From Escherichia coli (GTDB lineage Bacteria; Pseudomonadota; Gammaproteobacteria; Enterobacterales; Enterobacteriaceae): a DNA stretch of 64,000 nt. Position numbers: made by a program. Location: the NCBI RefSeq assembly GCF_044324785.1, contig NZ_CP172128.1; one strand, written 5' to 3'. This document shows, one piece after another, positions 15,201 through 21,200 of the stretch (within the stretch, counting starts at the first letter, position 1; each line of letters begins with the position of its first letter).

Positions 15201-18200
15201 AGACCGCTGCGAACGTAACGGTGCTGCCTGAGCCACTTTTGTGCGCCTTCTGTTTTGATGACCCGGATAAAGGCGTTTCTGGCCAGTGAATACACCGGCG
15301 TGCTGAAACGCCCCTGGTCCCGTTTACTTTTGAGCCTGCAGGAGAGATTGAGGTTGTTCATCAGGGCTACCGCTGCTTTCCGGTCACCGAGGAAGAACTG
15401 TAGGCCAAAGATGGCAAAGAGCGCTTTTTCATGTGGGGCCATGTCTTTCCAGCTGGTCAGTGGTTGCCCCAGTTGCGCCATGAAGCACTGGCGTGTGGAC
15501 GCAACATCGAGCTGCATGTTGCGGATAAGGTTGTTCTGCTCCACAAAGGCTTCGGGGGTTAGAGCGACACGGCGCTCGGGACGTTTTTGTCCGTGGAAGA
15601 GTCTGTTGCTGTCTCCGTCAGCCAGAACGGGGGCGATAGCCGGTGACAGTGATGAAAACAGATGTGGCAGCGTGTGGATATTCAGTGGTCTGCGGGTGAA
15701 GCGGGGCTGGGCCGGATGCTGAAACCACATCCACAGAAAGCCGATCGTCATGGGAAGCAGAATCAGCCAGAGGATCCCCACGGTCTGTGACATGACATCC
15801 AGCCACTGGCTGAAAGTGATCGTTGCAGCGTTGTTGGCGGTGTTGGCCAGCAGGTTATAACGGGGGGCGGCAAAATGGTGAAAAGGCCCCCAGTCAGTCA
15901 TCCCCCACATTGTGTGCAGGATCAGGCAGGTGGCAAAGACGATGTCGGGTAAAAAGAGCCAGATGAGAAGCGCAAAGAGCAGACATATGGTGCCAACGAT
16001 ATACCATATGTTCATCGGGTCTTCTGTTGTGGGGGAGTGTTGGTAAGACACGAGGATTCCTCCATCGATAAATAGATAAATTTCGGGATGAGGCTGAGTG
16101 GAATTAATGCGAACAATCGCCGGTAATGACCGGGCAGGGATGAAATAACCAGGGTATTTTCACAGGAACAGCAGAAGGCAGTGAGAGACAGGCACAAAAA
16201 AACCGACTGGTGAGGTCGGTTTTTTTGCTATTCCGGGGCGGAGTTGGTGACTCTGACCGAAAGGGAAATCACTCTACATCTAACACCATCATAGTAGGCT
16301 GCGCTTCTCTTTTTTGCAATCAGAAAAATGACTATAATCGCTCCGTTAGCTCTGTCTGGTGATGCTTCTGCCCTTTAATAAAATATGCTCAGGTTAAAAA
16401 CCGAAAACCTTCCTGCACTTCCTGCGCCTGTTCCCGTGAGTCAAACATGAGCCGGCTTTTACCCGGAACCCCCAGGAAATATATTCTACATCCACCCACT
16501 ATTTTCCGTATTCTTCATACGGTCCGGATATCACTTTAGTGACAAATGCATCAACCAGGTTCATTTTTACACCTTTCTGTTATTTTTGCTTATTACGACC
16601 AGCAGACAGCAAATATTAAAAATAACGCGGCGGTAAAAATGGCAATTTTTTCCCATACTGTATTTTTTCCATTTATTTGCTTTGAAATGTTTTTTTGCTT
16701 CATATCAGTAAATGATTATTTTTTATTCTGTTTCCTCCAGACCCATGGTGGCACCGGATTTTCATCTGCCCATAATCCCCGTTTAAGGGCACGGGCATCG
16801 CGCTGGAGAGCCGGGAGAGTATAGTCCTTGTTGTAGTCCGGGTATACCCAGGCCGCTCCCTTCCTGATTTGCTCACGATTCGCTTCAGTGCCGTCAGCGG
16901 TATAGACTCTGCCGAGAATACGGTTATATCTGTCGGTCTGTAAGTATTGTACGGTTACAGGCTTACCGGCCACCAGGTCTTTTAACTGAGAGGCAGACCA
17001 GCGTCCAAAGGGCTGTTTCTTTTCCGGTGCATCAATATTTGCCAGGCGGACCCTGACAGTTTTTTTATCCTGTAATATTTCCAGTGTATCACCATCAAGA
17101 ACGCGGATAACGTTTCCCTGAATCTGTGCAGCGCAGAGGGAACCTGAAAAAATAATAGCGAGAGAGAACATATATTTTATCATTTTATTACATCCTTTTT
17201 TATTCATGAAAAACAGGCGGCGTTTATATTACGGAATAATATCGTTAAGTTGAGTTTATGTTTCCGGTAATGTAATGCTTCACGCAGAGCATGAATTCCA
17301 GTAGGCTAATATTCATGATGATATAGTAACAGATATCCGGTGACAGTATGCAGGAACATATTGATTATCAGATTGAGAAATATCAGTTCAGGGCCAGGAA
17401 TGAGTCTCCGCGACTGATGCGCCAGTGGGCAGATGTCATGCGTGAATGCCGTGATACCGGAGCAGGAGCCAGGGAGCGGCTGCGGATTGCCTTACTTAAT
17501 GTTGATTATGTGACCAGTTTTGAACTGCCGTTTCGTCTGCTGTTAACCCGGACACCGCAGATGATTGACAGCGTGCGGCGGGAATGGCAGCTCAGCCAGA
17601 AAAAAGTCGTATTCAATGAGCGGCAGCGGGGATGTGTATACAGTCTGCAGAATGACTTATCCGGCGTGCCGGATAGCTTCAGTTACAGTCTTGCGACGCG
17701 AATACGGCGGGTGGACAGCTATGGCATGACGACGCGTTGTTTCACTGATATAGCCGGGCAGGTTAAAGCCCCGACAGCACGGCTGAAACTGGCGCTGGAA
17801 AGCGGGTTAATTGTCACCGCGCTGGATGGTCTGTTCTGGCTTGGTATTCAGCGTATTGCCGCAGATGTGCAGCGGCTGCGTCAGTCCGGAATGACAATCA
17901 TCACCCGGGATGTTGAGGTCTCAGACTCGCTGACCGGAACCACACGGGTTGTTTCCGGGTACAGCCTTTGATTTATGCAACAAAGTATCGCAGCGTCGAA
18001 TATGAGCTATGGCCAGATTTTTGTTAATCGTGGTTGTTGCAACATGTAAGGCGAATGACCACACTATTCTGGTACGCTCGTAATCACGCTGAAATTCTGC
18101 TTCCTGTCCTGCCGTGATGAGTTCCGACCAGGACATACGGCGAAGTGTATGTCTGTCAGTAATATCCGTCATGAGCTCTCAGCCTCCTCCTTCGTATTTC

Positions 18201-21200
18201 CGTCAGAAACACAAACGCCCCGCAGAGAAAATTCGCCAACATTCTCCTTTTTAATGGCGCGCAATGCATCGCGGCAGGCCCGTTCGGTATGAAAGGCCTG
18301 GCTGTGCACCGCCAGTGTGGGCTGACGGGCATCACCGGAAGAGACATTAAAGGGCGATGAAAGCCAGAAAATCAGTAGCCACATGCGTCACACCTCGTCC
18401 TTTTTATGCGGGTATCTGGACAGAATATTGAGCGCCTGTAATGGCGCTTCATGCATTTCACGGATACAACGGGCATCGGTGATATTTTCCCGGTAATGTG
18501 TGGTTTCCAGCATCATATGATGCATATGGAGCATCCGGGCCAGGGCTGCGCGGAGTTCTTCAATATGTTGTTCATGGGAATGCTGGCGGGGCTGTATCCG
18601 GCAGAGAGGGATAACCTCCACATCATCCGGGTGCGCGCGAAGCCACGCGTCAGTGACTGCAATGTCGTCAGTGTAAAACCATGTGCCGGATGTCCCGTTG
18701 GCCAGAAAACGCATTTTCCAGGCTTCTGGGGTGGCGGTTGTGTTGTTATCTTTCATGGTGCCACCACTCATTCAACAGGCTTAATGCTGTCCAGGCGCAG
18801 TCTGCTCAGACTGTCGTGGCTGCCACAGCGGCGTCCGGTGCTTTTGCTGTAGCACTCCTGCCCCCTGATACACCATGCCGTTGGCGTTTCGTAGAGGCTG
18901 ACACGTCGGGTTTTATCTTTAATGATGAGAAGCCCGGTGTGAGTTTTTGTCTTTTTCATCGGTGGGGTACAAACGCAGAAATTTTGTTGTCATTACATCA
19001 TCAGTTTTAGCCTGCAGAGACGCTGAAAAATCAGCGTTTTCAGACCCTGTTCAGGTTAGTGAATATTCTTGCCTGGCCTTTCGGCAATATCAATCCCCTG
19101 GAGTTGCATGGATATGCCCATACCGTTGACCATGAGGCTGTTTATGGACTGAACACCACATTTCATCATGAGCTCAAAACACAGTGCGCTGAGCATGCCG
19201 AGCGCCTCTTCTGAGGACTGGCAGTGTGTATTCAAAAGAGTATTGAACTGTTTAACGATATCCGGGGTGAGGCACATACTTTGTATTTCGTCTTTCATGA
19301 CTACTCCTTATTTCAGGCATTTTGCATTTTGGGTTAATAACACGAAGCCCGTAGACGGAAAACCTGAGGCGTTCGGATGGGATAATTCCCGGGTATTTTC
19401 CTGTTCCGGATACAAAAAATATAACGGCATGAAAAGGATTGTGGCGGACAGGAAAACAATTAGAATAGCTGCGGGCGCTTGAGGCTGTATGCCGAAAGCG
19501 TTTTGTGGACGGCATGCAGCAGAAAGCCCCAGGCGATCTTTTTATCAATCAACCCAGGGCCCACTGTAATGCCTCAACAACATTATAGTAGCCCGATGAC
19601 GGCCGAAAGGCAATGGAGGGGCTGCGATGCCACAACGAACGTTTTTAATAATGTTAATCGTCGTCTGTGTGACGATACTGTGTTTTGTCTGGATGGTGAG
19701 GGATTCGCTTTGCGGATTTCGTATCGAGCAGGGAAATACGGTGCTTGTGGCAACGTTAGCCTACGAAGTTAAACGTTAACGGGCAACACGGCGGCAGGAC
19801 ATCTGCCGCCGGATTGTTGCGAAGGCTGACCTCAATGCGCCTTGTTTGTCTTTTTTACCGGACGATGGATCCCACTCCTCCTCATCAGTTCGTAGCAGAG
19901 TGTACTCAGCATGGCAAGTGCAGCTTCTGATGATTTACAGTGTGTATTCAGGAGGGTAAGAAATTGTTTAAAAACATCAGGGTTTATACTGGTGCTTTGA
20001 TATTCGTTACTCATAGTATTTCCTTTCAGGTCATTATTACTTCCGGATTTAACATGATGTCTGTAACCATAAAATAATGAACGTGTTCCGGGAGTCCTTG
20101 CCGTGTAGTTTCCCGTAAAAATACTGTTGTGCATTACATGTCATTAGGTGGAAACCGATTGTGGCAGACTGAAAATCGATTAGAATAGCGGCGGGCGCTT
20201 GAGGCTGTATGCTGAAAGCGTTTTGTGGACGGCATGCAGCAGAAAGCCCCAGGCGATTTTTTTATCAATCAACCCAGGGCTCTACTGTAATGCATCGACA
20301 ACATTATAGTAGCCCGATGACGGCCGAAAGGCAATGGAGGGGCTGCGATGCCACAACGAACGTTTTTAATAATGTTAATCGTCGTCTGTGTGACGATACT
20401 GTGTTTTGTCTGGATGGTGAGGGATTCGCTTTGCGGATTCCGTGTCGAGCAGGGAAACACAGTGCTTGTGGCAACGTTAGCCTACGAAGTTAAACGTTAA
20501 CGGGCAACACGGCGGCAGGAAATCTGCCGCCGGATTGTTGCGAAAGCAAACCTCAATGCGCCCTTTTTTACCTGGATTTCTGCAGCGCGTTTCAGCATAG
20601 CATGCAGTTCTGTGCTGATCCTTGCTTCCAGTCGGGCAGTTTGTGTTGCAGATGGCATGATTTGTACTTCCTGAATATACTGAACGGCAAATTGCCGTAT
20701 TGTGCTAATTACAGTCTGATACAGGGACGGCAGACAGGCATTCTGCCTGAAAAGAAAAAGCCGGTTCAGAGAAAACCGGCTGACGGATTACCGTCTAACA
20801 GTTGGTCGCTACCTTACAATACTTCTGCAACAGGCACACCGGCAACTTTTTCCCATTCTTTAACCCGATACCGAATCATCTGCGGGAAACGCTCTTTGTA
20901 CTCATATCCACGTGCAGCCATGGTGTGCATGGTGTTGGCCAGCGTCCTTGCTGAGATGCCGGAGATTTCAAGAGGGATCATCGGCAGACTCACATAGGTG
21001 GTGTGGATTTCCAGCTTGCCGTCTTCAGCAACTGTTCGGGTGAAGTTGTGAATATCCAGACCAATCACATCCATGACATTGTTTGGGTAAATGCGCACAT
21101 ACAGCATGGTGCCGTTTTTAATGTCGATCCCGAAATAGCAACTCTTCGAGAATGACAGTTGCTCGTAATCGCTGGTCGGCGCAAAGGGACTGCTTTCTTT

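Follow-up and report, generated by a model that had tools for sequence, protein, structure and literature searches.

A widespread cassette of small genes, ending in a putative ANR relative, in the excA-trbA interval of an IncK2/Z-type Escherichia coli plasmid

The window of Escherichia coli DNA analysed here (64,000 nt of contig NZ_CP172128.1; coordinates are those of this window unless another locus is named) represents an IncK2/Z-type plasmid of the IncI complex: the region matches, at 100% identity, several E. coli plasmids of type IncK2/Z that have a MOBP relaxase and mating-pair formation of type MPF_I. Our subject is a group of small genes in its excA-trbA interval, where the minus strand carries, in order, trbB, trbA, nuc, the small genes, excA and traY, and the plus strand carries two Hok/Gef genes and a 207-aa gene. 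Open reading frame (ORF) calling found all six ORFs of the group exactly where a preliminary description of this DNA had placed them: five on the minus strand, of 80, 63, 127, 71 and 83 codons (o80, o63, o127, o71 and o83), and the 207-aa gene on the plus strand, which runs into the 3' end of o83 with an overlap of 51 bp. The minus-strand ORFs are indeed small genes clustered tightly on one strand, and their only annotation is as hypothetical. Our comparisons show that four of them, o63-o122-o71-o83 (o122 being the more likely form of o127), make up the core of a cassette found in hundreds of plasmids and at about 800 chromosomal sites, and suggest, from profile matches and a structural model, that the last of the four encodes a divergent relative of the ANR (Aar/Rnr) family.

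The four ORFs after o80 had been described as joined by 4-bp ATGA-type overlaps or 3-bp gaps. The overlap is present between o71 and o83, as is the 3-nt gap between o127 and o71, but between o63 and o127 the overlap exists for the longest ORF only. The Prokaryotic Genome Annotation Pipeline (PGAP) starts this gene at MKDNN, position 18756, and its paralogue in a related plasmid (L009) shares that start and has no in-frame start upstream of it, which suggests that the conserved o63/o122 junction is a gap of 11 nt. On the other side, o80 lies upstream of o63 across a spacer of 96 nt. The spacer holds a hairpin (ACGCUGA/UCAGCGU) that is followed by a run of U's on the plus strand only, so that minus-strand transcription should not be stopped there, and read-through from o80 into o63 is plausible. 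Taken together, o63, o122, o71 and o83 are probably carried on one minus-strand mRNA, possibly with o80 at its upstream end. Beyond nuc, the strong bidirectional terminator of an AgrB-like antisense RNA insulates trbA from upstream minus-strand transcription (Table 1).

Table 1. Features of the excA-trbA interval and their positions in the window
Feature	Position	Strand	Description
o80	19056-19298	-	80 aa; ORF call, and a PGAP coding sequence in an identical plasmid; strong AAGGAG Shine-Dalgarno sequence
o63	18768-18959	-	63 aa; no obvious Shine-Dalgarno sequence
o127/o122	18388-18771	-	127 aa as longest ORF; more likely 122 aa from 18756
o71	18169-18384	-	71 aa; GAGGTG Shine-Dalgarno sequence
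o83	17921-18172	-	83 aa; GGAGG Shine-Dalgarno sequence upstream
207-aa gene	17348-17971	+	convergent with o83
nuc	16716-17207	-	thermonuclease family; PGAP start 17183
Hairpin in o80-o63 spacer	19020-19037		plus strand -20.1 kcal/mol, z -3.6; minus strand -18.7 kcal/mol, z -2.7
AgrB-like antisense RNA	16194-16283	-	Rfam RF02891, 50.4 bits against a gathering score of 40
Terminator of AgrB-like RNA	16197-16226	both	strong, bidirectional; fold -19.1 kcal/mol, z -4.2
Two hok/sok modules	19431-20568 (19431-19847; 20151-20568)	+	hok 19627-19779 and 20348-20500; two Rfam sok matches
o80' (truncated second o80 copy)	19832-20014	-	cut at duplication junction

A diverged second copy of the cluster is carried by the IncI-complex plasmids L009, L010 and L012, in the order o63', o121, o71' and o103, between nuc and trbA and directly upstream of trbA; its genes are 60-85% identical to those of the window. 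Against the L009 set, the ratio of nonsynonymous to synonymous substitution rates (dN/dS) was 0.10 for o80, 0.14 for both o63 and o122, and 0.07 for o71, at dS values of 1.3-2.6, at which synonymous sites are near saturation. For o80 the ratio stayed within 0.10-0.21 across comparisons, and o71 is the most conserved of the set, with 84% amino acid identity to its paralogue. For o83, dS against the L009 paralogue was saturated and dN/dS not computable, and the value of 0.52 against a chromosomal copy is inflated because the tail of the gene is antisense to the 207-aa gene. The gaps in the paralogous cluster are 10, 9 and 27 nt, so that gene order and adjacency are conserved across the two sets and the exact overlaps are not. 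The low dN/dS at dS above 1, the Shine-Dalgarno sites and the tight junctions show that the small ORFs are genuine genes under purifying selection.

Comparison with other plasmids of the complex indicates which of these genes travel together. Relative to plasmid L005, the stretch from o63 through the 207-aa gene has 98-100% protein identity, against 70% for o80 and 90% for nuc. Moreover, o80 remains beside hok in L004 and L009, where the four genes are elsewhere or absent. It need therefore not head the small-gene operon, as had been suggested; o80 could either open the transcript or stand as a unit of its own. Judged by remote homology, o80 is one of a separate family of small proteins whose genes keep their place next to hok/pnd in IncI-complex plasmids; hhalign relates it to Hp25 of R64/pESBL (WP_001291964.1; probability 95%, E 3e-8), a similarity that BLASTP did not see. 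Hp25 was non-essential for both maintenance and transfer in a transposon-sequencing (TnSeq) study of pESBL (PMC4288162). At the other end, the 207-aa gene scores above the equivalog cutoff of the ECs1377 family (NF052300, 301 bits against 190, residues 17-205), has a C-terminal Pfam HTH_39 winged helix (E 2.4e-5, residues 146-207) and matches phrog_24243 (E 2e-53). All plasmids examined (L004, L005, L009 and L012) keep it next to nuc as a divergent pair, chromosomal ECs1377 genes have unrelated neighbours, and the 207-aa gene is probably an independent unit. We considered it as a functional partner of the cluster and rejected this, given that the chromosomal neighbours differ and that nuc separates the ECs1377 gene from the four-gene set in L009-type plasmids. 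The identity break in L005, the association of o80 with hok and the pairing of nuc with the ECs1377 gene thus delimit the core cassette as o63-o122-o71-o83. The preliminary description saw no motif to which a name could be given, which no longer holds: besides the ECs1377 assignment, o83 resembles ANR proteins, and o63 and o71 have relatives in phage families.

o83 (<10 kDa) consists of a conserved core of approximately residues 1-70 and a variable C-terminal tail, whose codons lie opposite those at the 3' end of the 207-aa gene. It scores 16.2 bits (E 0.007) on the ANR model NF033650 (ANR_neg_reg), whose curated cutoff is 32 bits, and o103, the paralogue in syntenic position, reaches 28.5 bits (E 1e-6). 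A profile of o83, its chromosomal 90-aa form (o90) and o103 found 28 representatives in 1.8e9 proteins; the distant relatives among them all match the ANR model, two of them, P0058 (41.1 bits) and P0068 (34.9 bits), above the cutoff. ANR proteins are defined as smaller than 10 kDa, with three conserved alpha-helices and the signature A10, E14, A22, W26, A29, W43 and R47 (plus C51) (PMC4983702). In an AlphaFold2 (AF2) model computed from a concatenated alignment, the o83 core is predicted as three helices (residues 289-301, 305-318 and 322-344 of the concatenate), with predicted local distance difference test scores (pLDDT) mostly of 76-84, and in Foldseek this helical part matched annotated ANR proteins, including phage-encoded ones, with TMt of 0.72-0.91 and, at best, a root-mean-square deviation of 1.0 over 59 columns. 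The E-values of 0.2-0.3 are non-significant, which is to be expected of a helical bundle of about 60 residues within a 345-residue query. With the same concatenated model nothing in the PDB fell below E 0.1, and AFDB50 and BFVD gave mostly sequence homologues and uncharacterised proteins. When aligned by hand to the ANR signature, o83 shows E24/E26, T34, W38, A41 and C61, with a helix 2-3 loop two residues shorter; T34 is an alanine in the chromosomal and paralogous copies. These comparisons point to o83 as a divergent relative of the ANR family.

Homologues of o83 and o90 are mislabelled "Neurotensin receptor R8", and those of the o103 type "flagellar biosynthesis protein FlgM", in UniProt and some RefSeq entries (L003 12060-12332; O87514, A0A376VUH2, A0A4V1W5L8); the mislabel also occurs in at least one island paper (PMC7371111). 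Both labels are propagated misannotations of what appears to be an ANR-like protein. Separately, P0068 lies directly downstream of a YdgH/BhsA-TetR-DUF417 trio (L021 3668-6258). Such a trio is also found at the flank of the o90 cassette in islands of uropathogenic E. coli (UPEC; L003 10446-12332), which could be a coincidence or reflect a shared island scaffold.

Two of the other core genes lead to phages. o63 matches phrog_1226, phrog_7520, phrog_5148 and phrog_4183 (PHROGs E-values of 7e-17 and 9e-17 for phrog_1226 and phrog_7520), and o71 matches phrog_3766 (E 2.5e-11); all of these families are unannotated as to function. These family hidden Markov model matches of o63 and o71 are full length and backed by the paralogues, and o103, the paralogue of o83, has a PHROG match as well, which by profile similarity assigns three of the four core genes (o63, o71 and o83) to phage small-protein families. 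In tblastn searches, o63 found 100 temperate-phage records, within arrays of small early genes, and o71 found homologues in the nin/ea region of Klebsiella temperate phages. Between them, the two have homologues in Stx2a, Klebsiella, Yersinia, Cronobacter and Escherichia temperate phages, among tiny co-oriented early genes past the replication genes or between repressor and integrase. At the same time, a homologous-protein search with o63 alone returned close E. coli copies only, o71 gave no confirmed relative among viral contigs, and neither the cluster DNA nor the o127 protein had a match in the phage collection. The concatenated-alignment model predicts an all-beta mini-domain for o63 (pLDDT 80-86) and, with low confidence, a beta-beta-alpha-beta layout for o71, which has a short hydrophobic N-terminus. 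As for o122, its homologues fall into 45 clusters, all from E. coli plasmids or islands and essentially representing two alleles about 70% identical; no match was seen in Pfam, NCBIfam, PHROG, PADLOC or PDB, and the predicted beta-beta-alpha-beta fold with a His-rich helical hairpin is of low confidence (AF2 pLDDT 46.8, too poor for a fold search).

Early-region relatives of this kind raise the possibility of an establishment or anti-defence cassette: like many small early genes in phages and in the leading regions of plasmids, its genes would, upon arrival in a new cell, code for inhibitors of defence or takeover targets of the host (restriction, abortive infection, nucleases). The placement of the o63 and o71 families among the tiny ORFs of temperate-phage early operons would fit such a role, as would the sharing of the cassette between plasmids and islands, but no similarity to anti-restriction or anti-defence families was seen in NCBIfam, Pfam or PADLOC, and the only assignable gene, o83, points to regulation. 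In PADLOC none of the seven proteins had a match at E <= 0.1, and no anti-phage or toxin-antitoxin system was recognised; Pfam gave nothing for the concatenate of the five small proteins, even at E 10, and PDB sequence searches with the small proteins nothing meaningful. The cluster, moreover, presumably lies on the trbABC side of oriT and would enter the recipient last, outside the leading region, which counts against this role. We regard an anti-defence function as unlikely.

The distribution of the cassette and its mosaic boundaries are established. The 2.2-kb block occurs in 496 PLSDB plasmids, mostly from Escherichia and Shigella (355 near full length; 480 conjugative), and, among complete E. 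coli genomes, at 800 chromosomal and 485 plasmid places in 1,137 of 5,426 genomes, or about one in five. A cargo block with nuc and two hok/sok modules does occupy the excA-trbA interval, as the preliminary description had it, but it is no one-off insertion: its presence in hundreds of plasmids and at about 800 chromosomal sites makes it a widespread cassette and not a private one. The chromosomal copies, about 90% identical to the plasmid block, lie in pathogenicity islands of extraintestinal pathogenic E. coli (ExPEC) that are rich in insertion sequences (IS), beside iha, sat, iuc/iutA and pap. They are homologous to the plasmids from o80 onwards, and the homology stops within the 3' end of the ECs1377-family gene, of which the islands keep only a remnant. 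Since the island block ends within this remnant, as in the plasmid arrangement, it shares ancestry with the arrangement seen in IncK/B/O/Z plasmids, and the chromosomal copies probably derive from a captured plasmid fragment. Copies on UPEC chromosomes are seen, for example, at L002 and L003 (12001-13720), and among genomes the island copies are truncated at three points (query positions 522, 537 and 638). We also considered an origin in a P4-like satellite or phage-inducible chromosomal island and rejected it; the helicase and TOTE-primase fragments that abut the island copies lie outside the homology block.

The state of the islands bears on whether the cluster does anything at present. It could be left over from the early operon of a phage or satellite, hitch-hiking with hok, nuc and iha and having no current function; the island copies do sit in IS-riddled, decayed regions beside primase and helicase fragments, PGAP leaves o83 uncalled in the matching plasmid, and o122 has no relatives outside E. 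coli. On the other hand, purifying selection is strong across two diverged sets that have kept their gene order, and hundreds of plasmids and chromosomes carry the ORFs intact, whereas a 58-aa gene and the second o80 copy in the same window are visibly decayed. A functionless relic therefore seems to us distinctly improbable.

What fills the excA-trbA interval varies between I-complex plasmids, and the interval is thus an accessory slot of changing content. In R64 it contains a HEAT-like gene, a 58-aa gene, dqlB, Hp25 and pndA, and in the IncI1 plasmid pESBL-EA11 (L032) hha, the 58-aa gene, dqlB, Hp25, pndA and finQ (see also PMC4288162); in L004 and L009 the place is taken by genes for a phosphoethanolamine transferase and a DUF2569 protein, and in L005 by a TnsA-like gene. 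The transferase (EptA/Sulfatase domains, 511 aa) and the DUF2569 membrane protein lie at L004 6819-8922, L009 5822-8012 and L012 691-2881, an autotransporter is present as well in L004 and L012, and finQ and hha of pESBL-EA11 are at L032 1619-2398 and 4520-4729. The interval thus appears to collect small regulators and interference genes.

This location, between genes of the transfer system, suggests a further reading, namely that the cluster encodes accessory conjugation, exclusion or fertility-inhibition functions of the I-complex. Its genes have the orientation of traY-excA and trbABC, the paralogous set is immediately upstream of trbA, and the slot holds finQ in pESBL. However, the four-gene cluster was not found in the excA-trbA interval of R64 or pESBL, both of which are efficient at transfer, and the cassette persists in chromosomal islands without tra genes. 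The strong terminator between the cluster and trbA argues against a role as trbABC leader. No homology to the named R64 transfer and exclusion genes (tra, trb, exc) was seen in NCBIfam, Pfam or PADLOC, in line with the earlier view that these are not known transfer genes; only o80 has an R64 homologue, and this homologue, Hp25, is dispensable for transfer. We consider a transfer role highly unlikely.

The explanation that we favour, tentatively and with a little less than even confidence, is that of a co-expressed mobile accessory cassette, distinct from the transfer machinery, in which the ANR-like o83 modulates H-NS or AraC-type regulators. We infer that the four co-oriented genes would be transcribed together on the minus strand, with translational coupling of the downstream pairs. 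By analogy with Aar and Rnr, o83 would act without binding DNA; ANR proteins have been reported to contact AraC/XylS activators and H-NS directly (PMC4983702, PMC5570504, PMC10148876), and o83 may likewise bind host H-NS-family proteins and/or AraC/XylS activators. Such binding would retune the silencing or activation of horizontally acquired genes in the host that carries the plasmid or island. The products of o63, o122 and o71 would be co-expressed with o83, and binding of host factors by them is a guess from their phage early-region relatives only; the convergent overlap of o83 with the 207-aa gene may give some transcriptional interference.

Several observations weigh against this explanation. 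A promoter and terminator scan of the cluster gave nothing above shuffled expectation and no standout promoter, o63 has no Shine-Dalgarno sequence, and we found no expression data for the cluster. The score of o83 on the ANR model is below the cutoff, and two of the seven conserved ANR residues are replaced (W43 by L53 and R47 by H57), for which reasons we call it an ANR relative and not a certified member; in Aar, the residue equivalent to W43 is needed for activity (PMC4983702). The distant ANR-like relatives stand alone, without o63, o122 or o71 as neighbours, so that the four genes need not act together, and roles for the latter three can only be guessed. Finally, no AraC-family gene is annotated in the 64-kb window. 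This last point, together with the presence of hha in the same slot of an IncI1 plasmid and the location of P0058, an ANR protein above cutoff, between the tra operons of another conjugative element, favours the H-NS family as the putative target of o83.

A bolder version, in which the four proteins work as one unit, with an ANR-like anti-regulator and three phage-early-type partners overriding H-NS/AraC-type control in the host, would amount to an undescribed multi-component variant of ANR, and we think it quite improbable. If true, it would constitute a mobile regulatory override in IncK/B/O/Z plasmids and, next to pap, iha and sat, in ExPEC islands, and would tune either the expression of adhesins and virulence genes or the cost and transfer of the plasmid. 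For the favoured cassette, the matter is of some breadth, as its carriers make up about one-fifth of complete E. coli genomes plus several hundred resistance plasmids, all with the genes annotated as hypothetical or mislabelled. If o83 does bind H-NS or AraC-type regulators, the cassette would modulate xenogeneic silencing from plasmids and islands alike, with a bearing on plasmid fitness cost and on ExPEC virulence regulation; if it does not, what is left is an annotation correction and a clear case of a piece of plasmid that has become fixed in pathogenicity islands.

The immediate surroundings of the cassette show duplication and decay. The two hok/sok modules form a 721-bp tandem duplication with 92-96% identity, and the o80' copy is called by PGAP as a 100-aa hypothetical protein, its conserved part stopping early relative to an 80-aa homologue in L009. 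Downstream of nuc, a homologue of the 58-aa gene of R64/pESBL (MNLVDAF..., 16499-16564, minus strand) has a tryptophan-to-stop change at 16499-16501; dqlB is neither called nor annotated near it, the AgrB-like antisense RNA and terminator are kept, and the whole resembles a type I toxin-antitoxin locus of the dinQ-like kind that has decayed. Farther away, a pile of insertion sequences (IS3, IS21, IS66, IS256) follows trbC (approximately 1-11130), where R64 has nikB-nikA-oriT, and an IS66-family ISEc23 with an internal stop interrupts the tra operon between a traU-like gene and traT (approximately 29330-31750). The record matching the window is a 169-kb cointegrate with an IncFII repA.

Several known systems come close to parts of the region. 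Hp25 of R64/pESBL, beside pndA, is like o80 in being homologous, in occupying the same interval and in having a hok-family neighbour, but identity is only about 27%, and relative to hok it is convergent and downstream in R64, whereas o80 is divergent and upstream in the window. With the ANR proteins, represented by Aar of enteroaggregative E. coli and Rnr of enteropathogenic E. coli/C. rodentium, o83 shares a predicted three-helix core of about 70 residues, apparently the E...A...W..A...C spacing, and an occurrence on enteric mobile DNA. Unlike them, it has an extra N-terminal segment (MSWS motif), is the last of a four-gene cluster and lies inside a conjugative transfer region, and whereas ANR genes stand alone under an AraC activator, o83 has no AraC partner nearby. 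Hha/YmoA-type proteins, of which hha in the same slot of pESBL-EA11 is an example, are likewise small, helical, co-oriented with tra and presumed to target H-NS; they have no sequence relationship with o83, however, and Hha is an H-NS co-repressor, while reports on ANR proteins describe binding to H-NS and a change in how H-NS binds DNA. The early ORF arrays of temperate phages (nin/ea/exo-xis-type; phrog_1226, phrog_7520, phrog_3766 and phrog_2227) match o63, o71 and the o83 paralogue, and both they and the window cluster consist of tiny, tightly packed, co-oriented genes with overlapping stops and starts. The cassette genes differ in their setting, which is the transfer region of a plasmid or a pathogenicity island and not a phage, and their specific four-gene combination was absent from the phage records and distant-relative loci examined. 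On this comparison the cassette, though divergent, falls within kinds of system already known and does not make up a type of its own.

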